This document shows, piece after piece, positions 4,438 through 63,528 of a DNA stretch of 64,000 nt. The notes beneath the pieces were generated by a model, which was not told the origin of the DNA, made no database searches, and saw only the letters and a list, made by a program, of their open reading frames with translations. The DNA lies in contig JBAXQK010000001.1 of assembly GCA_037131775.1 (NCBI GenBank), positions 12,708 through 76,707 of the forward strand, given 5' to 3'. This stretch comes from Candidatus Uhrbacteria bacterium. GTDB taxonomy: Bacteria; Patescibacteriota; Patescibacteriia; UBA9934; GWF2-40-263. Each line of letters begins with the position of its first letter. The first letter of the stretch is position 1. A program made the position numbers and the translations under genes.

Positions 4438-6621
4438 ATGAAACAACTCCTCAAAACGCATTTCGGCTACGATGCCTTCCGTCCGCTGCAGGAGGACATC
4501 ATGAACACGGTCCTCGGTAAAAAGGATGCGCTTGTCCTCATGCCAACGGGGGGAGGGAAGTCGTTGTGTTTCCAGCTCCCGGCGCTCATGTTTCCCGGAA
4601 TCACGCTCGTGATCTCCCCGCTCATCGCGCTCATGAAGGACCAGGTCGATTCGCTGACCGCCAACGGCATCTCCGCCGCGTTCATCAACAGCACGCTGAC
4701 GGACGACGAGATGCAGTCCGTCGAGTTCCGCGCGCTGTCCGGCGAGCTGAAGATCCTGTACGTGGCCCCGGAGCGTCTTCCGTCGCCCGCGTTTCGGCGC
4801 CTGCTCGAGCAGCTTACCGTGAGTCTCATCGCCATCGACGAGGCGCACTGTATCTCGGAATGGGGCCACGACTTCCGGCCGGACTACCGCAACCTAAAGG
4901 ATCTCCGGTCTGCATTTCCGTCCGTCCCGGTCATGGCGCTCACGGCGACCGCGACCCCGAGGGTCCGCGATGACATCGTGAGGCAGCTCTCGATGCAGGA
5001 GGCATCCGTGTTCCTCTCGAGTTTCAACCGCCCGAACCTCACGTATTCCGTTGTCCCGAAGTCCAACTCGTTCAGCCAGCTCGTCGACCGCCTTCGCCGT
5101 CTGAACGACCAGCCGGCGATCGTCTACTGCTTTTCGCGCAAGGACACCGAGTCACTCGCCGCCGATCTGACGCACGCCGGGCTCCGCGCCCTGCCGTATC
5201 ACGCGGGCCTTGAGCGCGATCTGCGGCGCGAGACCCAGGAGCGGTTCATCCGCGACGAAGTGCCGATCATCGTGGCGACGATCGCGTTCGGGATGGGAAT
5301 CGACAAGCCCGACGTCCGGCTCGTGGCGCACATGGACCTGCCAAAGACCATCGAGGGGTACTACCAGGAAACGGGCCGCGCCGGACGCGACGGGCTGCCG
5401 AGCGAATGCGTCCTGTTCTACACCTACGGCGACAAGCGCAAGCAGGAATTCTTCATCGCCCAGATCGCGGACGAGGACGAGCGCGAGCTTGCCCAGACCA
5501 AGCTGAACCAGGTGGTCTCGTATTGCGAGTCGGATACCTGTCGGCGACAGATGCTTCTGCGTTACTTCGGCGAACCCTGGGACGATTCCAAGTGCGACGC
5601 GTGCGACAACTGCATCCAGGCTCCCGTCGAATCCCGCGATGCCACCGAGATCTCCCAGAAGATCCTGTCCGCCGTATTGCGCACCGGCGAGGCGTTCGGC
5701 GCGGCGTACGTGATCGACGTACTCCGAGGGTCGCGGAAGGAGCGGATCGTCGAGAATCATCACGACGACCTCCCGGTCCACGGGATCGGACGCGACGTTT
5801 CGGTCGACTCGCTTCGGGAGTGTTTCCGACTGTTGCAAAAGAAAGGCTATTTGGAAAAGACCGAGGGCGACTATCCGACGCTGCGGGTTTCCCGCATGGG
5901 AAAGGCCGCGCTTTCCGCGAGGGAGTCGATCGAGCTCCCCGTCACGATTGCTACGACGACCGCCGCGCCGTCGAGATCCTCCCGTTCGTCGTCGGCTGCC
6001 GCCGGATCCGTTCCATACGACGCGGGTCTGTTCGAGATACTCCGCCGTGAGCGGAAGTCCATTGCCGACGAGCGTCACGTTCCGCCGTTCGTCATCTTCG
6101 GCGACAAGACGCTGCACGAGATGGCATATTATTTCCCACGCTCGACGGACAGCCTGTCGTCCGTGTTCGGCGTGGGCGCAAAGAAGCTAGAAGAGTTCGG
6201 AGACGCATTCCTCGCGTTGATTCGCGAGTATGCCGATGCGAATGATCGTGCGGAACGGAAGCATCCAAAGACCGGGGAGGAACGGACGACCGGATCGTCC
6301 TCGGACGGATCCGCGACGGTCGAGCGACGAGGAGGATCAACCGTTCTCAAGACGAAAGAACTCATCGAGAACAAGCTGACCCTGGCCCAGATCGCCGAAT
6401 CCCGCGGGCTCAGCGAGGGAACGGTCGTGACGCACATCGCCGCGCTGCTCCAGGAGAACGACTCGCTCGACATCGAGCACCTTCGCCCGTCCGACGAACG
6501 CATGTGCGCCATCTCGGACGCGTTCGAAAAAACCGGCGGAGCCTTTCTCTCGCCGGTCAAAACGCTGCTTGGGGACGACTATTCCTACGATGAGATCAAG
6601 CTCGCGCGGCTGTTCTTGTAG
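4438..6621 (+). CDS. recQ: ATP-dependent DNA helicase RecQ.
   Basis: FGYDAFRPLQ, LMPTGGGKSLCFQLPA Walker A, DEAHCISEWGHDFRPDY, RecQ-Ct zinc-binding Cys cluster (CRRQ..CDACDNC), HRDC-like region, and an extra C-terminal HTH-like tail. Confidence 0.85.
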   Translation: MKQLLKTHFGYDAFRPLQEDIMNTVLGKKDALVLMPTGGGKSLCFQLPALMFPGITLVISPLIALMKDQVDSLTANGISAAFINSTLTDDEMQSVEFRALSGELKILYVAPERLPSPAFRRLLEQLTVSLIAIDEAHCISEWGHDFRPDYRNLKDLRSAFPSVPVMALTATATPRVRDDIVRQLSMQEASVFLSSFNRPNLTYSVVPKSNSFSQLVDRLRRLNDQPAIVYCFSRKDTESLAADLTHAGLRALPYHAGLERDLRRETQERFIRDEVPIIVATIAFGMGIDKPDVRLVAHMDLPKTIEGYYQETGRAGRDGLPSECVLFYTYGDKRKQEFFIAQIADEDERELAQTKLNQVVSYCESDTCRRQMLLRYFGEPWDDSKCDACDNCIQAPVESRDATEISQKILSAVLRTGEAFGAAYVIDVLRGSRKERIVENHHDDLPVHGIGRDVSVDSLRECFRLLQKKGYLEKTEGDYPTLRVSRMGKAALSARESIELPVTIATTTAAPSRSSRSSSAAAGSVPYDAGLFEILRRERKSIADERHVPPFVIFGDKTLHEMAYYFPRSTDSLSSVFGVGAKKLEEFGDAFLALIREYADANDRAERKHPKTGEERTTGSSSDGSATVERRGGSTVLKTKELIENKLTLAQIAESRGLSEGTVVTHIAALLQENDSLDIEHLRPSDERMCAISDAFEKTGGAFLSPVKTLLGDDYSYDEIKLARLFL

Positions 6622-7411
6622 AGGCCGCGACGCTGGCGACAAGGAAGAACAGGATACTCCAGAGAACGATCGTTCCTCCGCTCGCGAGATCGAGATAGAA
6701 TGACGACACGAGGCCGAGGATCACGGACAGGACGGAGATCCCGATGGCGATCTCCCATGTCTTGCGGAACCCCGTGCGAAACTGCATCGCGCCGAGCACC
6801 GGGATGACCATGAGCGCGCCGATGAGGAGCACGCCGACCACGTTCATCGAGATCGCGATCGTGGCGGCGCCGAGGACGGCCAGGACGCGATTGAGCTTTT
6901 TGACCGAGATGCCGCTCGCCTCGGCCATGTCCTCGTCAAGGGAGACGACGAACAGGGCGCGCCACAGCATCATGGTAATGGCGAACGCAGCGGTTCCGAG
7001 GAGGACGATCGACAGCAGGTCGGCGCGCGTGACGGTGATGATATTTCCAAACAGGTAGTTGACCACGCTCACGTTCTTGCCGTGCGCGAGGCCGAGCAGG
7101 ACGACCGCGACGGCGAGGCCGCCGAACAGGAACAGGGAGACGATGGTGTCCGCGGGGAGCACCTTCTTTTCGCGCATCCGCTCGATGCCGAGGACGGACG
7201 CGACGGAGAACACGAGCGCCGTCGGAATCGCGGCGGTTCCGGCAACGAGGCTCGCGGCGACGCCGGCGAGGGAAATATGGGCCAGCGTGTCGGCCATCGA
7301 CGAGTAGCGGCGGACCACGAAGAACAGGCCGATCGTGGGCGCGACGATGGCGACGACGATGCCGACCATGAGGGCGCGGCGCATGAAGTCGAGAGAGAGA
7401 AGTTCGAGCAT
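6596..7411 (-). CDS. znuB: ABC-type zinc/manganese transporter permease (ZnuB/TroC family).
   Basis: Start set at MLELLSLDFM. Eight hydrophobic helices. Ends convergently overlapping recQ. Immediately downstream of the znuC-like ATPase, which stops at 7416. Confidence 0.75.
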   Translation of the reverse strand: MLELLSLDFMRRALMVGIVVAIVAPTIGLFFVVRRYSSMADTLAHISLAGVAASLVAGTAAIPTALVFSVASVLGIERMREKKVLPADTIVSLFLFGGLAVAVVLLGLAHGKNVSVVNYLFGNIITVTRADLLSIVLLGTAAFAITMMLWRALFVVSLDEDMAEASGISVKKLNRVLAVLGAATIAISMNVVGVLLIGALMVIPVLGAMQFRTGFRKTWEIAIGISVLSVILGLVSSFYLDLASGGTIVLWSILFFLVASVAASTRTAARA

Positions 7412-7415
7412 AGGC

Positions 7416-8195
7416 TTATGCGTGATCGTGATGCTGGTGGTGGGAAAGCAGGTCGGCGCGGTCTGGATGGAACAGGTCGCGCAGCTCCTCCTGGCCGATG
7501 TGGCACGCCTTGTCTCCGTGGCACACCAGCTGGTGCTTGAGGCAGATGGCCGAGCGCGCCTCCTTCGAGACCGCGTGGATGTCGTGCGACACGAAGATGA
7601 TCGTGACCCCGCTCTCGTTGATGCGCCGGAGCATGGCGTAGAACGCGTCACGCGACGCCGGGTCGAGCCCGTCCGTCGGCTCGTCGAGGCACAGGATCCT
7701 CGGCTCGCCGGCCATGGCGCGGGCGAGGAGGACCTTCTGGCGCTCTCCGCCGGAAAGCTTGCTGAGCGGGCGCTTCCAAAGGGTCGAGAGTCCCATGTCC
7801 GTCATTGCCTGGCGAATGGCGTCCTCGTCGTGCTCCTTGAACCGTCCGAACAGCCCGAGGTGCGGGATGCGCCCGGATCGAACGACCTCCTCGACGGTGG
7901 CGGGGAACTGCGGGTCGAGATTTCCTCCGCGCTGTGCCACGTACCCGATCTGACGCCGAACGCACGCGTCCGTCGCCGGCCCGCCAAGTACCTCGATGGT
8001 TCCGTGCGTCGGCTGCAGCAATCCAAGCAATAGGCGAAGCAGGGTCGTCTTCCCGCCGCCGTTCGGCCCGATCACGCCGACGTAGTCGCCGGTCTTGATC
8101 TCGAACGAGAAGTTATGGATGATCTCCTCGCCGTTTCGGACGTAAGAGAGCTTGGACGCGCTGACGATCGGTTGTTGCGTAGCTTCTACGGGCAT
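7416..8195 (-). CDS. znuC: ABC transporter ATP-binding protein for zinc/manganese uptake (ZnuC-like) with a His-rich C-terminus.
   Basis: GPNGGGKTT Walker A, LSGGERQKV signature, ILCLDEPT Walker B, C-terminal HHQHHDHA. Confidence 0.8.
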   Translation of the reverse strand: MPVEATQQPIVSASKLSYVRNGEEIIHNFSFEIKTGDYVGVIGPNGGGKTTLLRLLLGLLQPTHGTIEVLGGPATDACVRRQIGYVAQRGGNLDPQFPATVEEVVRSGRIPHLGLFGRFKEHDEDAIRQAMTDMGLSTLWKRPLSKLSGGERQKVLLARAMAGEPRILCLDEPTDGLDPASRDAFYAMLRRINESGVTIIFVSHDIHAVSKEARSAICLKHQLVCHGDKACHIGQEELRDLFHPDRADLLSHHQHHDHA

Positions 8196-9127
8196 ACCAT
8201 TCCAGTCTTAAGGTTCTCCAAGTTGGATCGCATGACGCTGAGATAGTCCTCGCCTGCACTTGCTTCTTCCGCGGACAACCCCTCGAGCGGGTTGAACACG
8301 AGCGTCCTCGCTCCAATCTCGCTCGCGATCGTCTCGGAAAGCTTCGGGCTGACCAGAGTCTCAAAGAAGATCGCGCGGACGCCCTTCGCCTTCGCGATCG
8401 CCGCGATCTCGGACAACCGTCCGGCCGACGGCTCCTGCTCGGGAGAGATTCCGGAGATGGAGATCACGTCGAACCCGTAGTGCTTGGCGAGGTAGGCGAA
8501 GGCCGCGTGCGATGTTACGACGGTGTGCTGGTGACACGAGGCGAGTCCGGCCACGAAGTCGGCGTCAAGCGACGAGAGCTGCGCGAGATACGCGTCGGCA
8601 TTCCTCGCGTACGTCGCCGCGTTCTTCGCGTTTATAGTAGACAGTGTATCACGGATGAACGCGACTTCTTTTTCCGCGAGAGCAGGATCGAGCCAGAAGT
8701 GCGGGTCCGTTGGGGCGTCTTCCCCAGGTGAGGATGCGAGAAGATCGACCGCGGATCCCATCTCGACGGCCGGGACGCCCTGTATCTTCAATTCGGGAGC
8801 AATCCGATCCGCCCATGCGTCCACGCCTCCGCCGTTGTAAAGCACCAGGTCCGCCCCATACATCTCTGCCACCTGCCGCGCCGTCGGCTCATAGTCGTGC
8901 GGCTCGGTTCCGGACGGCGTAATCGTCGAGACAGACACGAGGTCCCCGCCAACCTGCCGCGCGAACTCGGCGACGGGATAGAAGCTCGCGACGACCTTAA
9001 TACGGCCGGAGTCCGATGTTGAAGAGGAAATCGTCGTTGACGGATGCCACGACGTCGCCCAGGCCAGGACAATTCCAAGAACCACGGCCGCCGAGAGGGA
9101 AAGCACAAACTTGTTCAATGTCCGCAT
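8186..9127 (-). CDS. znuA: Metal (zinc) ABC transporter substrate-binding lipoprotein, ZnuA/TroA family.
   Basis: Signal peptide. Cluster-9 solute-binding protein layout with conserved H/D/E positions (HDYEP, DPHFWLDP). First gene of the znuACB operon. Confidence 0.8.
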   Translation of the reverse strand: MRTLNKFVLSLSAAVVLGIVLAWATSWHPSTTISSSTSDSGRIKVVASFYPVAEFARQVGGDLVSVSTITPSGTEPHDYEPTARQVAEMYGADLVLYNGGGVDAWADRIAPELKIQGVPAVEMGSAVDLLASSPGEDAPTDPHFWLDPALAEKEVAFIRDTLSTINAKNAATYARNADAYLAQLSSLDADFVAGLASCHQHTVVTSHAAFAYLAKHYGFDVISISGISPEQEPSAGRLSEIAAIAKAKGVRAIFFETLVSPKLSETIASEIGARTLVFNPLEGLSAEEASAGEDYLSVMRSNLENLKTGMVCP

Positions 9128-9169: not shown

Positions 9170-9191
9170 CCGTCGCGTCAACGTGAACGTT

Positions 9192-9626
9192 ATGAAAAAG
9201 CTTGCGAACGTGGAACTCTACAGCGTCCTTTATCGCGCCGGGATGAAGATCACCGGTTCCCGCGTTGAGATTCTCCGAATCCTCTGCGAGCTCGATGCCC
9301 CGGTCGGGGTTCCGGAGCTGTTCGATATCGCCGTGAACCGAAACATCACCTACGCCACCGCCTATCGCACACTCGACGCTTTTGCCACAGCCGGCATCGT
9401 CAGAAAAGTAGATCTTCGCCACGGCCATGTCGATTACGAGCTCGTCAAAGACAAGCACGATCATCACCACATCGTTTGTACCGGCTGTGGAAAGATCGAA
9501 GACTTCGACGGCTGCGAGGTCGAGGCGGTCATCAAGAAGGCCCTAAGGGGAAGCAAAGAGTTCCAAGAGGTGAGTGATCACGCGCTTGAGCTGTTTGGGA
9601 GGTGCAAGGGGTGCGTTTCGTCGTAA
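9192..9626 (+). CDS. zur: Fur-family transcriptional regulator, most likely the zinc uptake regulator Zur.
   Basis: RVEILRIL winged-helix region, HHHIVC, CGKIEDF and C-terminal CxxC metal sites. Divergent from znuACB. An alternative GTG start lies at 9183. Confidence 0.75.
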   Translation: MKKLANVELYSVLYRAGMKITGSRVEILRILCELDAPVGVPELFDIAVNRNITYATAYRTLDAFATAGIVRKVDLRHGHVDYELVKDKHDHHHIVCTGCGKIEDFDGCEVEAVIKKALRGSKEFQEVSDHALELFGRCKGCVSS

Positions 9627-9718
9627 TTTATCCACCCTTGCAGACTCCCCAATCGCCTGATATACTCCTCACGCCGTACCAAATTCCGGGGTAGCTCAGC
9701 GGCAGAGCAGTGGACTGT

Positions 9719-10284
9719 GGCACGCGTTTTAGGCAATACTCAATTAGTATGGCCGACAAGCGAACCTACGCCCAGCGAGCCGAAACGATCAAGCGCGCAG
9801 TCAGCAAGCGTAGAAAGCGGGTCCGGATGCAGGCCATCGAGTTTCTCGGCGGCAAGTGTCAGATCTGCGGATACGACCGGTGCGTCGACGCTCTCGACAT
9901 CCATCACAAGGATCCAAAGAAAAAGTCTTTCGGCATCTCTGAGGACGGTGTCACTCGTTCCTGGGAACGGGTAAAGGCAGAGATCGAGCATTGCATACTG
10001 ATTTGCGCGAACTGCCATCGCGAGGTTCATGCGGGCATTACGCAGCTTCCAACGGAAACGTTGGAATGAACACAGGGTGAATTGCTGGAAGCCGTCGTCA
10101 GTAATGACATGGTAATCAGCAGCCAAGCCTTTGATCCCAGGACATAAGTCCGCAGGATCATCGGAAGGTTCAGAGACTATCCTTTCGAGGAGTACTTCTC
10201 CGACGTAAGTCGGAGCGGGAAGCGCCCTGCATCCGCAAGGATGATGATATAGTCCACGCTTTTGGGAAACCAAGAGAGTACGTG
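9719..10284 (+). mobile_element. Group I self-splicing intron of about 566 nt in tRNA-Asn, carrying an HNH homing endonuclease ORF.
   Basis: Conserved group I P7 elements GTTCAGAGACTA (10168-10179) and TAGTCC (10250-10255). Inserted after U35 of the anticodon. Contains an HNH ORF at 9749-10069. Boundaries could shift by 2 nt because of local sequence repetition (CTGTGG / GTGTAA). Confidence 0.6.
9749..10069 (+). CDS. HNH homing endonuclease encoded inside the tRNA intron.
   Basis: CQICGYDRC...DIHHKDPKKK...CANCHREVH is a classic HNH/His-Cys box with two CxxC pairs. Wholly contained in the intron. Confidence 0.7.
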   Translation: MADKRTYAQRAETIKRAVSKRRKRVRMQAIEFLGGKCQICGYDRCVDALDIHHKDPKKKSFGISEDGVTRSWERVKAEIEHCILICANCHREVHAGITQLPTETLE

Positions 10285-10413
10285 TAATCCATTTGTCGCG
10301 GGTTCGATCCCCGCCCCCGGAGCCAACACAATCTCCCTTTATTTGAGGGGGATTTTGTTATACAGTGGGTGGGAACTGGAACTACGGAAATAACATGAGA
10401 ATTACTAAACGAT

Positions 10414-11649
10414 ATGACTGATCAAACGAAAGATATTCGACACATGATGAGCAAGGTGCCAGAGGTTACGATTTTCTTCTGGGTCATCAAAGTTTTGTGC
10501 ACAACGGTCGGCGAGACGGCATCTGATTTTTTGAACGTGAATCTGAATTTTGGCTTGACGGGAACTTCTATTTTAACAGGGGTATTATTGCTGATCGCGC
10601 TCGTCTTTCAGTTCAGGGCAAAGAAGTACGTCCCAGCGCTTTATTGGATCAATGTCGTGTTGATCAGCATCTTCGGAACACTCGTGACGGACAACCTAAC
10701 TGACAGCATCGGTGTACCCCTCGAAGTGAGCACGATCGTTTTTAGCGTGCTTCTGGCAATCACTTTTGCCGTTTGGTACCGCAGGGAAAAAACGCTTTCC
10801 ATTCACTCGATCTTTACGAAACGCAGGGAGTGTTTTTACTGGTTGACCATCCTCTTTACCTTTGCCCTCGGCACGGCGACCGGAGATTTGATGGCGGAAA
10901 GCCTTGGCCTTGGATACGCGGTCACAGGCGCGATTGTCTGTGCGGTGATCGCTGCCGCCGCCATCGCTTGGCGACTTGGACTCAACTCCATCTTGGCGTT
11001 TTGGATCATCTACATTTTGACACGACCGCTCGGCGCTTCCTTGGGTGATTATCTCTCACAACCTGCGAAATATGGTGGATTGGGATTGGGAGCGACGGTG
11101 ACTAGCGTCATATTCCTGTTGGCAATTCTCGCCACCGTCATGTTCCTTTCATTCACCAAACGTGATTTGGTCGAGGACGCCTCGGTAAGGGAGGAAGAAG
11201 CGAAACAAGGCGGCGCATTGCGGCAGGTTGCGGCGGTGATAGGTTTGTTGGTCTTGGTGTCCGGGGCAGGGTATTACTGGCGTCACACGGCGCTTCAGAA
11301 TGAGGAAAGCGTCGTTTCTGTCCCAACGACAGGGACAAACGGTTCGACGAGTCCAACGCCGCACGTTTCGCCATTGGGCGATCTGTCCGGCTTCCGAACG
11401 ATTACGCAGGACACGCTCGATTTCGTGCTCGCAGGCAAATTCTCAGAGGCAAAGACTCGCGTTTCAGACCTGGAGCATGACTGGGATATTGCGCAGTCCA
11501 AACTGAAACCAATGAACAAGGCGAAGTGGACGGAAATGGATGATGCGATCGATCAAGTATTACGCCAAGTTCGCGCGGTGAATCCAAATGCCGATGCATG
11601 TAAATCGGCCCTGGAGAAACTGCTGGCTATTATTGATTCGAATCAATAA
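10414..11649 (+). CDS. Membrane protein with an internally duplicated polytopic domain (COG4705-like) and a C-terminal helical soluble domain.
   Basis: Two repeats of the FFWVIKVLCTTVGETASDFL / FYWLTILFTFALGTATGDLMAESLG type. About 8 hydrophobic helices. Local GC is clearly lower than the neighbouring genes. Confidence 0.45.
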   Translation: MTDQTKDIRHMMSKVPEVTIFFWVIKVLCTTVGETASDFLNVNLNFGLTGTSILTGVLLLIALVFQFRAKKYVPALYWINVVLISIFGTLVTDNLTDSIGVPLEVSTIVFSVLLAITFAVWYRREKTLSIHSIFTKRRECFYWLTILFTFALGTATGDLMAESLGLGYAVTGAIVCAVIAAAAIAWRLGLNSILAFWIIYILTRPLGASLGDYLSQPAKYGGLGLGATVTSVIFLLAILATVMFLSFTKRDLVEDASVREEEAKQGGALRQVAAVIGLLVLVSGAGYYWRHTALQNEESVVSVPTTGTNGSTSPTPHVSPLGDLSGFRTITQDTLDFVLAGKFSEAKTRVSDLEHDWDIAQSKLKPMNKAKWTEMDDAIDQVLRQVRAVNPNADACKSALEKLLAIIDSNQ

Positions 11650-11807: not shown

Positions 11808-12335
11808 ATGAAACTCTACCTTGTTCGCCACGGCCAGACCACTGGCGATATCGAAGATCGCTACGGTGGCAGCTATGATGACCACATGACGGAAAAGGGA
11901 CGCGAGCAGCTTGGGGTTACTGCGCAGAGGCTGGTCGGGAAGGGGATCGAGGTTGTCTTTTCAAGCCCGCTCGTTCGCGCCCGTGAGAGCGCCGAGATCA
12001 TCAGTCAGGCCGTCGGCGCGCCCGTGCAAATTGTCGAAGGGTTGGAGGAGAGGGACTATGGGGTTCTCACCGGCCTTACGAAAAATGAAGCGCGGGAGAA
12101 ATATCCCGATGTCGTCGAATCGCACAAGGATTATCTGTCCACCGACCCGGAGGGCGAAAGCTATGATGATTTTAACCGCCGCGTCGTCGATACGCTCAAG
12201 GACATTCTGACGAGGAACGACGCGATCGTCGTCATCGTTTCTCATGGCGGTCCTATCAAGATAATTCTGAGGCACCTTGGCCAGCCCGCACCCGACAAAC
12301 TCGACGACGGGCACATTATTGAGCTGATCTCGTGA
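11808..12335 (+). CDS. Histidine phosphatase superfamily protein (phosphoglycerate mutase family).
   Basis: N-terminal LVRHGQT catalytic RHG motif, SSPLVRARESA, and a C-terminal SHGG motif. Confidence 0.7.
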   Translation: MKLYLVRHGQTTGDIEDRYGGSYDDHMTEKGREQLGVTAQRLVGKGIEVVFSSPLVRARESAEIISQAVGAPVQIVEGLEERDYGVLTGLTKNEAREKYPDVVESHKDYLSTDPEGESYDDFNRRVVDTLKDILTRNDAIVVIVSHGGPIKIILRHLGQPAPDKLDDGHIIELIS

Positions 12336-13759: not shown

Positions 13760-14158
13760 ATGTTCCTAAAAATCTACTCGATCGCGGTTTCCGTGTTTTT
13801 TGCGATGGACATGCTGTGGCTTGGCGTCGTCTCAAAGGACTTTTATCGTGCGCGAATTGGCGCGCTGATGAAGCCGGATGTCAATTGGGTCGCGGCGGTC
13901 ATCTTTTATCTCATCTTTGTCTTCGGCCTCGTCACGTTCGTGATCAAGCCCGCCTTGGAAAAGGGCGATTGGACGCGAGCCCTGCTTCTTGGCGCGCTGT
14001 TCGGCCTTGTGTCTTACGCGACCTACGACCTGACAAACCTGGCAGTCGCGAAGGACTGGCCGCTTTCGGTTACTCTCGTCGACCTGGCGTGGGGCGCCGT
14101 ACTGGCGTCGTCGGTCTCGACTGTCACGTACCTTGTCGCAAAGAAAATCGGGCTGTAA
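13760..14158 (+). CDS. DUF2177-like small integral membrane protein.
   Basis: Approximately 130 aa with 4 TM helices. The pattern resembles DUF2177 members from memory. Confidence 0.45.
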   Translation: MFLKIYSIAVSVFFAMDMLWLGVVSKDFYRARIGALMKPDVNWVAAVIFYLIFVFGLVTFVIKPALEKGDWTRALLLGALFGLVSYATYDLTNLAVAKDWPLSVTLVDLAWGAVLASSVSTVTYLVAKKIGL

Positions 14159-14533: not shown

Positions 14534-14971
14534 ATGCCGACCCCCGCCTATAACTGGTACTCCCAGCTCATCAGACCGTCGTGGGCTCCTCCGTCCTGGC
14601 TCTTCGGGCCGGTCTGGACGGTGCTTTATGCCGTAATCGCCGTTTCTTTTGGCACGGTATTTTATAAGGCGTTTTCCAAGCAGATCCCGTGGGTCGTGGC
14701 GCTCCCGTTCGCGCTGAACATTGCGTTCAACCTTGCGTTCACGCCACTCCAGTTCGGCCTGAAGAACAATCTCCTGGCCGCGGCGGACATCCTTCTCGTG
14801 CTCGGGACGCTGGTCTGGGCCCTCTTTGCGATCTATACGTTCGGGCTCAAACTCCACATCGAGACCGGCGCGCCCACGTACGCCTGGATCGTCTACGCGA
14901 ACATTCCGTATCTCCTCTGGGTCTCGTTTGCGACGGCGTTGCAGCTGACGATCACGTATTTGAATCGGTAA
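14534..14971 (+). CDS. tspO: TspO/MBR family tryptophan-rich sensory protein.
   Basis: WY..L.RPSWAPPSWLFGPVWTVLY plus five TM helices, the canonical TspO signature. Confidence 0.8.
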   Translation: MPTPAYNWYSQLIRPSWAPPSWLFGPVWTVLYAVIAVSFGTVFYKAFSKQIPWVVALPFALNIAFNLAFTPLQFGLKNNLLAAADILLVLGTLVWALFAIYTFGLKLHIETGAPTYAWIVYANIPYLLWVSFATALQLTITYLNR

Positions 14972-15111
14972 CGAGCCACGTGCGGGTTCTCGTGCCATTC
15001 GTAGGACGTTACGGCTGGCATCGCTTTCCTGATGGACGAGATGCTGGCCAAATTCCTGCCGCGTGCATCTTCGGATATCGCGAAGGAGTAATCGTGGTAC
15101 ACTGTCCGCAT

Positions 15112-16266
15112 ATGGACAAGCGCACGACAGCCCAAGTTTCCGTCGCCGTCCTTGCCGTCGTGGCAATCGCCGCAGGGGTCGCCGTGTATTGCCTTGTGCC
15201 CAACCGGACGGTTACGGCGACGGCGACGACCGTTCCCGCGGTCGTCGTGGAGCCTTCCGTCGACCAGCCTCCCGCGCCTCCGCTCCCGCCTCCACCGCCT
15301 CCGCTCGATACCGTGGCGTACGACGCGAAGCTCAAGCAGCTCGCCCACTTCGTCGAACCGACCGTCGAGATCGTCGATGAGGTTGCTATCGACCGCCCCC
15401 AACCCCTCCCCCCTATGAGGGGGGGAGACGAGGCGAATGGACCGGCTTGGCCCGTCCACGCCGCGTATCCGAACCCGGGTGCGATCCTGCCGTTCAATCG
15501 AATCGTCGCGTACTACGGGAACTTCTATTCGCGGGGGATGGGCGTGCTTGGGAAGTATGATCCCGACGAGATGCTTCGTCGTCTCGACGTCGACGTGAAA
15601 TCGTGGGAGGCGGCGGATCCGACGACGCCGGTCGTTCCCGCGATCGATTACATCACCGTGACGGCGCAGCTGAGCCCGGGGGTCGATGGCAAGTATCGGT
15701 TCCGCATGCCGGATTCTCAGAAGGACAAGGCGGTCGAACTGGCCGTGAAGATTAACGGAATCGTCATACTGGAGGTTCAGGCTGGATTGTCGGACATGAT
15801 GGTCGAGGTGAAGAAGCTCGAGCCGTACCTTAAGCTCCCGAATGTCCATCTCGCCATCGACCCGGAGTTCGCGATGGTCGCGTCCGGCAAGCGCCCGGGA
15901 ACCGTGGTCGGAACGGTCGACGCGTCGACGGTCAACGCCGCCGCCGAGTATCTCGCGCAGCTCGTCCGGGACAACAACCTCACGCCGAAGGTCCTGATCG
16001 TCCACCGCTACACCCGCGCCATGGTCACGAACGCGACGAGCATCGTCCCGCTCCCGGAGGTCCAGATCGTCATGGACATGGACGGCTGGGGCCCGCAGGC
16101 GCAGAAGATCGACTCGTACCAGGCCTACATCCAGGCGGAGCCGGTCCAGTTCACCGGGTTCAAGCTGTTCTACGTGAACGACTTTCAGCGCGCCGGATCG
16201 CGGATGCTGACCCCGCAGGAGGTACTCGAGCTCACCCCGTCGCCTTCGTTCATTCAGTATCAATAG
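15112..16266 (+). CDS. Membrane-anchored protein with a Pro-rich linker and a large extracytoplasmic domain (putative hydrolase-like fold); function unknown.
   Basis: N-terminal TM anchor, PPAPPLPPPPPPL linker, and an approximately 300-aa conserved-looking domain. The start was trimmed from track ORF 14689 because the upstream part overlaps tspO. Contains an in-frame GC hairpin at about 15400-15425. Confidence 0.45.
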   Translation: MDKRTTAQVSVAVLAVVAIAAGVAVYCLVPNRTVTATATTVPAVVVEPSVDQPPAPPLPPPPPPLDTVAYDAKLKQLAHFVEPTVEIVDEVAIDRPQPLPPMRGGDEANGPAWPVHAAYPNPGAILPFNRIVAYYGNFYSRGMGVLGKYDPDEMLRRLDVDVKSWEAADPTTPVVPAIDYITVTAQLSPGVDGKYRFRMPDSQKDKAVELAVKINGIVILEVQAGLSDMMVEVKKLEPYLKLPNVHLAIDPEFAMVASGKRPGTVVGTVDASTVNAAAEYLAQLVRDNNLTPKVLIVHRYTRAMVTNATSIVPLPEVQIVMDMDGWGPQAQKIDSYQAYIQAEPVQFTGFKLFYVNDFQRAGSRMLTPQEVLELTPSPSFIQYQ

Positions 16267-58566: not shown

Positions 58567-59526
58567 TTGGAACTCACTCAAATTCTGGCCGAGCTCGCCT
58601 CGGCCGCCATCGCGCAACGCGGGTTCGACCCGTCGGCGATGGCGAAGCTGTCCGGAAACGCGTTCTACGGCGACACGGGAAACGGGGCGCAACGCCTCGC
58701 CGGTTTCGCGAGCGCGCTGAGCGCGGCCGGGGCCGACGAGGCCAAGATCGATCGGATCTCGACGATCCTCGAGGCCGTCGACACGGCGGCGAACGAGTCC
58801 CTGGACCACATCGTCGGCAGGACGAGGCGCGACCAGGACGATCTCACGGACGGGGAGCTCGCGTTCCTCGTCTCCTACCTCAAGGCCACCCGCAACCTCG
58901 ACGCGGACCCCAACGAGACGGACACGATGTCCTTCGAGGCGCCCGACGTCGGCTCGTCGAGTTCGCAACCGATTGGAAGCGGAGACTCTGGCGGAGGAGG
59001 TGGCGGTGGAGGGGGTTCTGGGCCGATCATCACGGCCAAGAACGTCGCGCCGACGAAGGTCCCTGGTTGGAGGCCGATCCTCGACGACCTTCACGCCCTG
59101 CTCGTCCAGTACGAATCGGGCAAGCGCCGCGTCGCTCATCTCGCGATCCGCGCGCTGGTTGACGGCTTGATCGACCCGCAACTCAAGGTCATCGCCGAGG
59201 AGTACGTCTTCGATCGCATGGCCTCCCCGAGGTTCGCCAAGGACGAGAAGTTCATTCGCCGCTTCGGCATGCCTCTCGAGCCCGAGCCGGAGACCGTCCC
59301 GGGGCCAGTTCCGCCCAATCCGCCGCAGCTCCCTCCGGTGAAGACCGCGGACGAGCTCGCCTGGGAGTCCGTCCGGGCGACCATCGACGCGATGTTCGCG
59401 GAGCTCGCTTCCGGCAACACGGACGCGGCAAGCAAGCTCTTCGCCCTGCGCGACGCGATCCCGGAAGGCGATCCAAAGCGCCTGGTCGCCGAACGCTACA
59501 TCGACCGCCGCTTCGCAGAAGCGTAG
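58567..59526 (+). CDS. Hypothetical protein, 319 aa, with a central Gly9 linker (SGDSGGGGGGGGGSGP) and Pro-rich segment; family not recognised.
   Basis: Divergent from the preceding hypothetical gene. Followed by a strong terminator. Confidence 0.4.
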   Translation: MELTQILAELASAAIAQRGFDPSAMAKLSGNAFYGDTGNGAQRLAGFASALSAAGADEAKIDRISTILEAVDTAANESLDHIVGRTRRDQDDLTDGELAFLVSYLKATRNLDADPNETDTMSFEAPDVGSSSSQPIGSGDSGGGGGGGGGSGPIITAKNVAPTKVPGWRPILDDLHALLVQYESGKRRVAHLAIRALVDGLIDPQLKVIAEEYVFDRMASPRFAKDEKFIRRFGMPLEPEPETVPGPVPPNPPQLPPVKTADELAWESVRATIDAMFAELASGNTDAASKLFALRDAIPEGDPKRLVAERYIDRRFAEA

Positions 59527-62034: not shown

Positions 62035-63528
62035 ATGGCATCGAACAACGACATCATCGAGGCGCTCAAGGCGCAGGTTGCCGCGTTCAAGGCGGACACG
62101 AAGGAGGAGAAGGTGGGAACCGTGATCTCCGTCGGCGACGGCATCGCGCGCATCTCCGGCCTTTCCGAGGTCCAGGCTTCGGAAATGCTTTTGTTTCCGA
62201 ACGACGTGTACGGCATGGCGCTCAACCTCGAGGAGGAGACCGTGGGAGCCGTCGTGCTCGGCGAGGCGAACAAGATCAAGGAGGGCGACATCGTGAAGAC
62301 GACCGGCCGCATCCTTTCGATCCCGGTGTCCGACGCCGTGGTCGGCCGCGTGGTCGATCCGCTCGGCAACCCGATCGACGGCAAGGGCAAGATCGTCGCG
62401 AAGGAATACTTCCCGATCGAGAAGCTCGCCCCGGGCGTCATGGCACGCAAGTCCGTCGGTGTTCCGCTCCAGACCGGAATCAAGGCGATCGACGCGCTCA
62501 TCCCGATCGGCCGCGGCCAGCGCGAGCTCATCATCGGCGACCGCCAGACGGGAAAGACCGCCATCGCCATCGACACCATCATCAACCAGAAGGGCCTCGG
62601 CGTGAAGTGCATCTACGTCGCCATCGGCCAGAAGGAATCCAAGATCGCAAAGATCGTGGCTAAGCTTGAGGAGGCCGGCGCCATGGAATACACCACGATC
62701 GTTCTCGCGGGAGCGTCCGACCCGGCCTCGATGCAGTTCATCGCGCCGTACGCCGGCTGCACCATCGGCGAGTACTTCATGGGCAAGGGCGAGGACGCGC
62801 TGGTCATCTACGACGACCTTTCCAAGCACGCCTGGGCCTACCGCGAAATCTCGCTGCTCCTCCGCCGCCCGCCGGGTCGCGAGGCGTACCCGGGTGACAT
62901 TTTCTACGCGCACTCCCGCCTCTTGGAGCGCGCGGCTCGCGTCGACGAGAAGAACGGCGGCGGATCGCTGACGGCTTTGCCGATCATCGAGACGCAGGCC
63001 GGCGACGTGTCCGCCTACATTCCGACCAACGTGATCTCGATCACGGACGGTCAGATTTACCTTGAGACCGACCTGTTCTACCGCGGTATCCGCCCGGCGC
63101 TCAACGTGGGACTTTCCGTCTCGCGCGTCGGATCCTCCGCCCAGACCAAGGCCATGAAGAAGGTCGCCGGAAAGCTGCGCCTTGACCTCGCGCAGTTCCG
63201 CGAGCTTGAGGCCTTCGCCCAGTTTGCCAACGACATGGACGAGCGCACCCGTTCCCAGATCGAGCGCGGCCGCCGCCTCACCGAGATTCTCAAGCAGCCG
63301 CAGTACTCGCCGCTCCCGTTCGAGGAGCAGGTCGTTTCGCTGTACGCGGTCACGAACGGCTACCTCGACAAGGTCGACGTGAAGAACGTCCAGGCCTGGG
63401 AGGAGAAGTTCCTCGACTACATGCGCTCGTCCGGATCGAAGGTCCTCGACGCGATGCGCGAGAAGAAGGAACTGAGCGACGAGATCGTCGCCGACCTGAA
63501 GAAAGCGATTGAAAACTTCACGAATTAG
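62035..63528 (+). CDS. atpA: F1 ATP synthase subunit alpha.
   Basis: GDRQTGKTA Walker A and the full alpha signature; 497 aa. Confidence 0.9.

Follow-up and report, generated by a model that had tools for sequence, protein, structure and literature searches.

The window analysed here is a 64,000-nucleotide (nt) stretch of contig JBAXQK010000001.1 from Candidatus Uhrbacteria (assembly GCA_037131775.1). Its subject is a locus that a first-pass annotation, made from the sequence alone, had read as a tRNA-Asn(GUU) gene split in the anticodon loop by a group I intron with an HNH homing-endonuclease gene. The parts of the locus are as follows, with a slash marking splice junctions.

9685–9718, plus strand: tRNA-Asn(GUU) 5′ exon, TCCGGGGTAGCTCAGCGGCAGAGCAGTGGACTGT, with the acceptor strand, D arm, 5′ strand of the anticodon stem, and C32, U33, G34 and U35
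9719–10284, plus strand: predicted group I intron of subgroup IA architecture, 566 nt, at anticodon position 35/36, with omega-G at 10284
9749–10069, plus strand: HNH homing-endonuclease gene in the P1 loop (L1), ATG at 9749, stop codon UGA at 10067–10069, 106 amino acids (aa)
10037–10045, plus strand: predicted internal guide sequence, AUUA (P10 partner of UAAU at 10285–10288) followed by CGCAG (P1 partner of CUGU/G)
10073–10283, plus strand: predicted catalytic core, the P3–P9 region
10285–10325, plus strand: tRNA-Asn 3′ exon, TAATCC...GGAGCCA, with U36, A37 and A38, the 3′ strand of the anticodon stem, variable loop, T arm, acceptor strand, G73 and CCA
Exon junction of the joined, intron-less tRNA-Asn: ...GCAGTGGACTGT/TAATCCATTTGTC... 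(also given as ...GGACTGT/TAATCC...)

We consider it very probable that this is a Candidatus Uhrbacteria tRNA-Asn(GUU) gene interrupted by a 566-nt group I intron of subgroup IA whose P1 loop holds an HNH gene. The element is of an already known kind and shows every defining feature of that kind that could be checked. Williams (2020; bioRxiv, 10.1101/2020.01.27.920355) raised the number of intron-interrupted tRNA types from 4 to 21, among them Asn.4Ug. In a survey of 95 complete Patescibacteria genomes, Nakagawa et al. (mSystems 2026; PMC13011429; preprint 10.1101/2025.07.03.662931) reported group I introns at 35/36 in 15 tRNA-Asn(GUU) genes. The earlier reading, a group I intron with an HNH gene in tRNA-Asn, is supported, and elements of this kind were already in the literature (PMC13011429).

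The tRNA gene and the fold of its intron

When 9685–9718 and 10285–10325 were joined, ARAGORN returned a 75-nt cloverleaf tRNA-Asn(GTT) with U1–A72, discriminator G73 and an encoded CCA, so that the two halves, the isotype and these identity features all stand as first annotated. In default mode the same program found no tRNA at 9685–10325. We compared the locus with sets of related loci, of which about 85 were inspected (L001–L085) and 74 were fully parsed for boundary counts. The 5′ half ending in CTGT was common to all of them, the 3′ exon began with TAA in 74 of 74, and the discriminator was G in 68 of 69. Roughly half of these tRNA-Asn genes (34/69), the window copy among them, encode the 3′ CCA.

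The first-pass annotation had based the group I identity on P7 hallmarks, and both are in place (GTTCAGAGACTA at 10168–10179 and TAGTCC at 10250–10255). It had also put forward a covariance-model search and a fold of 9719–10284 as ways to check the assignment. Rfam RF00028 matched 10018–10276 over the full model (1–253) with 80.4 bits (E = 7.8 × 10−19; gathering score 50), and folding yielded a complete set of P1–P10 helices, every pair of which is canonical in the window and in which the guide CGCAG pairs with exon CUGU/G.

P1: 9715–9719 with 10041–10045, including a U9718–G10042 wobble
P2: 10047–10054 with 10059–10066, a UUCCAACG-GAAA-CGUUGGAA hairpin
P3: 10073–10079 with 10223–10229
P4: 10083–10088 with 10116–10121
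P5: 10092–10093 with 10111–10112
P6: 10122–10123 with 10168–10169, extended by P6a–c
P7: 10175–10179 with 10250–10254
P7.1: 10180–10183 with 10188–10191, UUCG loop
P7.2: 10198–10204 with 10209–10215, GUAA loop
P8: 10230–10234 with 10239–10243, GCAA loop
P9.0: 10256–10258 with 10281–10283
P9: 10259–10265 with 10270–10276, GAAA loop
P10: 10037–10040 with 10285–10288, AUUA with 3′-exon UAAU

The fold has the features expected of a group I intron, namely P1 with its U–G wobble, the omega-G and a P3–P9 core with the P3/P7 pseudoknot; P7.1 and P7.2 come after P7 and before the 3′ strand of P3. Since these two extra helices mark subgroup IA, the intron can be assigned to IA from its predicted fold, in agreement with the published classification of Patescibacteria introns; nearly all tRNA introns of this phylum are IA, while most bacterial tRNA introns are IC (PMC13011429).

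Covariation was assessed in a MAFFT alignment of the 74 loci from which the part of L1 that is open reading frame (ORF) only had been removed. Canonical pairing across loci reached 100% in P4 and in P7 (which is invariant), 99% in P6, 90% in P3 and P8, 83% in P9 and 80% in P2, with compensatory double changes at most pairs. In P2 such changes occurred at all eight pairs, and the inner six pairs were canonical in 70–72 of 73 loci; in P7.2 they occurred at seven of seven. The four exon pairs of P1 were invariant (74/74), and the fifth, between the first intron base (9719) and the base 5′ of GCAG (10041), was G–C in 57 loci and A–U in 12. Covariation therefore backs P1 (at its fifth pair), P2, P3, P4, P6, P7.2, P8, P9.0 and P9.

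CGCAG at 10041–10045 was taken as the guide because it is invariant, adjoins P2 on the 5′ side just as the guide of ORF-less introns does, and shows covariation with the intron's first base. Two other guide candidates were rejected since both fall in freely varying codons: GCAGUC at 9797–9802, inside the ORF and able to form 6 base pairs (bp) with the exon, and GGUUCAU at 10024–10030, discussed below. The 9-bp P2 aligned by Rfam at 10022–10048 contains three mismatches and was replaced by the perfect, covarying hairpin at 10047–10066.

Possible expression signals lie on both sides of the gene.

9638–9666, plus strand: candidate tRNA promoter, TTGCAG (9638–9643), 17-nt spacer, TATACT (9661–9666)
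10330–10361, plus strand: intrinsic-terminator-like hairpin with a T tract, directly 3′ of the tRNA

The promoter, read from the sequence, is only a weak candidate because a consensus promoter scan did not call it (3/6 matches at −35) and gave no strong sigma-70 site. The terminator scan made three overlapping calls at 10330–10354, followed by TTTTGTT, against 0.9 expected, and many related loci have a comparable hairpin with a T run 3′ of the tRNA. The missing sigma-70 site would fit a dead remnant, in which a decayed, no longer spliced intron sits in a tRNA pseudogene that has fallen out of use. We find this account extremely improbable: all ribozyme helices and tRNA stems are intact in the window, the ORF is open and keeps all conserved residues, a terminator follows the gene, ARAGORN finds no second tRNA-Asn within the 64-kb window, and Patescibacteria genomes are reported to have no tRNA-Asn copies besides such genes (PMC13011429). 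The only other tRNA in the window is a tRNA-Met(CAT) at 59000–59086, which at 87 nt, with its anticodon at position 29, is unusually long for tRNA-Met.

Splice boundary and tRNA isotype

The junction is formally ambiguous by 2 nt (GT/GG...CG/TG/TAA), a point missed by the first-pass annotation. With GT before the 5′ junction and TG before the 3′ junction, a segment of the same length, 566 nt, can be excised two bases upstream (9717–10282). The product would be tRNA-Thr(UGU) with loop CUUGUAA and an intron at 33/34, which is what ARAGORN calls in intron mode (tRNA-Thr(TGT), 566-nt intron). In the window itself this alternative also keeps a U (GGACU) as the last 5′-exon base and a G (..UACG) as the last base of the intron, and GGUUCAU at 10024–10030 could pair over 7 bp with GUGGACU.

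Comparison across loci decides against it. The last intron base was G in 74 of 74 loci under the Asn (35/36) model, as against 50 of 74 under the Thr (33/34) model (A in 23, T in 1). Base 10282, which would be the terminal G of the Thr reading, pairs with 10257 in P9.0 as C–G in 50 loci and U–A in 23, and is therefore a paired intron base. The GGUUCAU guide candidate does not track changes in the anticodon stem. The tRNA body is not of the Thr type: its U1–A72 and G73 are typical of bacterial tRNA-Asn, whereas tRNA-Thr has G1–C72. The same mis-call has also been documented for a homologue and disproved by its sequenced spliced product (PMC13011429). We therefore give the tRNA-Thr reading almost no weight.

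The covariation of P1 and P9.0 fits the Asn model only, and P10 agrees with it. Because of the terminal G, the P9.0 covariation, G73 and the TAA counts across related loci, we regard an intron between U35 and U36 of tRNA-Asn(GUU) as supported by the comparative sequence data. The boundaries first proposed, with a 5′ exon ending in U and an intron ending in a conserved G (G10284), are accordingly correct, as is the Asn isotype despite the ARAGORN call.

Splicing of the window copy can be inferred from this fold, by analogy with a homologue. One precursor transcript would cover the whole tRNA-Asn gene including the intron. The guide CGCAG would form P1 with CUGU/G at the 5′ splice site, with its U–G wobble, and an external guanosine, docked at P7, would cleave after U9718. 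P9.0 and P10 would then place the terminal G10284 and the 3′ exon in the active site, and ligation of the exons would produce an anticodon loop of CUGUUAA. A Patescibacteria tRNA-Asn intron (GCA_016700035.1) was shown to self-splice precisely at 35/36 in vitro, and a mutant with the terminal G changed to C abolished exon ligation (PMC13011429).

The ambiguity matters for annotation, since ARAGORN either misses the tRNA-Asn gene (default) or calls tRNA-Thr(UGU) (intron mode), and tFind sometimes mis-scores Asn.4Ug as Thr.2Ug (PMC13011429, where the Thr(UGU) mis-call is documented). A genome so annotated appears to be without tRNA-Asn and to have a surplus tRNA-Thr, which distorts completeness estimates for Patescibacteria, as that paper also notes. 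The tRNA-Asn genes assayed there were sole copies; if that is true here, all asparagine codons would depend on self-splicing of the ribozyme.

How the HNH gene overlaps the ribozyme

The HNH ORF starts 30 nt past the 5′ splice site, and 322 nt separate that site from the guide sequence. The ORF had first been given as 107 aa; its HNH identity holds and its length is 106 aa. The protein carries the motifs CQIC, HHKDPKKK and CANCHREVH, which include the catalytic HNH motif, and is encoded within an intron of self-splicing type. It scores 23.6 bits against Pfam PF01844 (cutoff 21.4) and reaches E = 2.4 × 10−29 with the best of the PHROG HNH families; NCBIfam holds no model for it. All 27 family-invariant residues are kept in the window copy, including two CxxC pairs, HH and CANCH. 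A profile of the family matched the HNH domain of a group II intron maturase in the PDB (6me0, E = 1.4 × 10−5) and, weakly, McrA. The AlphaFold (AF2) model (predicted local distance difference test, pLDDT, 83.6) has one long N-terminal helix and a beta-beta-alpha module, and the top fold matches in a Foldseek search of the PDB were all HNH nucleases, with weak scores.

The last ~10 codons of the HNH gene also make up the P10, guide and P2 segments of the ribozyme, with the stop codon UGA in J2/3 (10037–10069). ORF-less introns have the same layout of guide, P2 and J2/3 with a short L1; these are therefore ribozyme segments through which the ORF is read. At the third codon positions of ACG, CAG and CTT in this segment, 100%, 100% and 96% of loci share one base, compared with only 51–67% in the equally conserved CANCH motif, which is consistent with a double duty of the segment in protein and ribozyme. 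Translation of the HNH gene and folding of P1 and P2 would then be mutually exclusive on one RNA, and would compete.

A possible start of expression lies inside the intron.

9735–9740, plus strand: degenerate −10-like hexamer AATACT, 8 nt upstream of the HNH ATG, possible intron-internal promoter

In homologous loci the hexamer is TATACT or TATAAT, mostly 6–9 nt upstream of the HNH ATG (43/73, compared with 15.8 ± 3.0 in shuffled leaders), and is often preceded by TGG, while motifs resembling Shine-Dalgarno sequences occur upstream of the ORF in just 7 of 73. This pattern suggests an intron-internal promoter and a leaderless HNH mRNA.

Several observations weigh against the account of a complete ribozyme with a working HNH gene. 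P10 is weakly conserved (59% canonical across loci), and P5a and P6c, at 34% and 39%, are either specific to the window or misaligned. The −10-like box of the window matches at 4/6 positions with no evident Shine-Dalgarno sequence, leaving HNH expression uncertain, and the structure search of the PDB gave no match at E ≤ 0.001.

Compared with the Patescibacteria tRNA-Asn 35/36 introns described as Asn.4Ug, the window intron shares phylum, tRNA, site and the U(−1) and terminal-G boundaries, the 2-nt ambiguity behind the tRNA-Thr(UGU) call of ARAGORN and tFind, the IA-type P7.1/P7.2, the PF01844 HNH family and the size class above 500 nt (PMC13011429). There is no difference in kind; the window copy comes from a high-GC (guanine plus cytosine) member of Uhrbacteria, and its HNH protein is at most 86% identical to full-length database proteins. 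Four of the published tRNA-Asn introns, all of subgroup IA, encode HNH (PF01844) endonucleases, and among complete genomes endonuclease-carrying introns of this tRNA-Asn type were found only in Patescibacteria (PMC13011429). The overlap of ORF and guide sequence and the −10-like box are not described in the accessible parts of that paper.

Other self-splicing introns offer more distant parallels. The cyanobacterial tRNA-fMet group I intron encodes I-Ssp6803I and, like the window intron, sits in a bacterial anticodon loop with its own homing endonuclease targeting the tRNA gene (a predicted target here). It differs in tRNA (fMet versus Asn), site (33/34 versus 35/36) and nuclease fold (PD-(D/E)XK versus HNH, in an intron of subgroup IA). 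The classical ORF-less tRNA introns, in tRNA-Leu(UAA) of cyanobacteria and plastids, tRNA-Ile of Azoarcus and tRNA-Arg(CCU) of Agrobacterium, differ from the window intron in being IC3, about 200–250 nt long, without an ORF and at other positions. I-HmuI and I-TevIII are HNH endonucleases encoded in phage introns; with these and with the HNH (En) domain of group II maturases the window protein shares a beta-beta-alpha-metal HNH module within a self-splicing intron. It is much smaller (106 aa) than I-HmuI, I-TevIII or 6me0, has no recognisable extra DNA-binding domains, and its predicted target is a tRNA gene. The sites of the classical introns are 34/35 and 36/37, and tRNA-fMet introns with PD-(D/E)XK endonucleases (PF11645) are also listed (PMC13011429).

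Distribution, mobility and genomic surroundings

Database relatives of the HNH protein number at least 801, and a scan with one genome per species placed the family in at least 586 species genomes at 58–86% identity. In all of the ~85 loci inspected, a tRNA 5′ half ending in CTGT is followed by the intron, the HNH ORF, a group I core, G, and TAA with the 3′ half; recurrence of this arrangement in so many independent loci excludes a chance origin. Pattern scanning after tRNA 5′ halves ending in CTGT also found at least 120 ORF-less metagenome introns of 180–300 nt, with an L1 of 4–28 nt, then GCAG, a GNRA-type P2 and ...UGAAAA...GUGAAU. In eight of the 80 ORF-less loci L086–L165 a scripted search found no TAA-type 3′ exon; the host gene there may be tRNA-Asp or tRNA-Tyr, or the contig may be cut short.

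The HNH-carrying tRNA-Asn 35/36 intron also occurs on contigs too large for Patescibacteria, and the following loci lie outside that phylum.

Labelled Acidobacteriota/Blastocatellia: L048 (OY970389.1, a 5.54-Mb Pyrinomonadaceae chromosome), L039, L042, L024, L029, L034, L037 and L040
Labelled Omnitrophota: L021, L041 and L061
Labelled Methylomirabilota: L053
Further locus listed among the occurrences outside Patescibacteria: L071

In the Acidobacteriota loci the intron starts with AA and the guide is UUGCAG, a compensatory change in P1.

The first-pass annotation had called such introns uncommon. This is true for bacteria overall, in that an endonuclease gene is present in 12 of the 333 tRNA introns from complete genomes (PMC13011429), and does not hold within the phylum, given at least 586 species genomes with the HNH-carrying form, far above the four cases in the published complete-genome survey. 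What is added here beyond PMC13011429 is modest: the number of species genomes, the occurrence outside Patescibacteria, the overlap of ORF and guide sequence, and the −10-like box. Another copy of a documented element leaves understanding unchanged; if confirmed, the wide spread of the HNH form, its occurrence in Acidobacteriota and the overlap of gene, guide and P2 would refine the picture of endonuclease-carrying tRNA introns as rare and confined to Patescibacteria. A combined reading, in which the overlap of ORF and ribozyme sets translation against folding, the HNH mRNA is leaderless from an internal promoter, and the element has spread across phyla in at least 586 species, is offered tentatively and as a whole is rather doubtful. 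Within it, the overlap and the presence in several phyla have essentially been shown, and the leaderless promoter and the coupling of translation to splicing would be its conjectural parts.

By analogy with other intron-encoded HNH enzymes, the 106-aa zinc-finger-type protein would cut or nick intron-less tRNA-Asn genes near the insertion site, and repair would copy the intron in (homing). The coexistence of forms with and without the ORF, and the presence in several phyla, lend this prediction indirect support. Alternatively, the intron may splice while its HNH protein no longer drives mobility, with vertical inheritance and an ORF kept for another role (a splicing aid or a general nuclease) or nearing loss. 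The abundance of ORF-less versions and the degenerate promoter box of the window would fit such an immobile intron, as would the survey data: most tRNA introns are without endonuclease genes, limited horizontal transfer was inferred, and the assayed tRNA-Asn genes were sole copies, with copies that have the intron and copies that lack it rarely together, so that intron-less targets within a cell would be rare (PMC13011429). However, the window copy has lost none of the 27 invariant residues (the two CxxC pairs, HH and CANCH among them), the range of identity over so many species argues for purifying selection on an active protein, and the presence in unrelated phyla, including the 5.5-Mb Pyrinomonadaceae chromosome, is hard to explain without horizontal movement. 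We thus regard loss of mobility as unlikely and prefer homing as the predicted role of the HNH protein.

The host is a high-GC member of Patescibacteria, Candidatus Uhrbacteria, as its AtpA (62035–63528) is 88% identical to that of Candidatus Uhrbacteria RIFOXYB12_FULL_58_10, and the named top matches were all Uhrbacteria or Patescibacteria. The gene content of the window is ordinary for a chromosome, with RecQ, CopA, leucyl aminopeptidase and ATP synthase alpha. Upstream of the tRNA are genes for a znuB-, znuC- and znuA-like ATP-binding cassette (ABC) transporter on the minus strand (6596–7651, 7416–8195 and 8186–9127) and, divergent from these, a Fur-family regulator (9183–9626) that ends 59 nt before the tRNA; the cluster is probably a zinc-uptake (Zur-type) unit.

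The intron had also been proposed as the landmark of a lower-GC accessory segment. The dip is mild (GC 0.50–0.56 over about 9–15 kb, compared with about 0.60–0.65 elsewhere in the window), and the idea of a tRNA-associated genomic island is unsupported because none of the ORFs scanned had an integrase domain, the tRNA 3′ end did not recur even with up to three mismatches allowed, and there was no attachment-site (att)-like direct repeat. Besides several ORFs with no family match, the lower-GC stretch holds the following genes.

10414–11649: DUF347 membrane protein
11808–12335: histidine phosphatase (His_Phos_1)
13760–14158: DUF2177 protein

At 15264–15305 a 21-nt sequence, CCAGCCTCCCGCGCCTCCGCT, stands in tandem with a variant copy inside a long ORF (14689–16266) that has no Pfam match.

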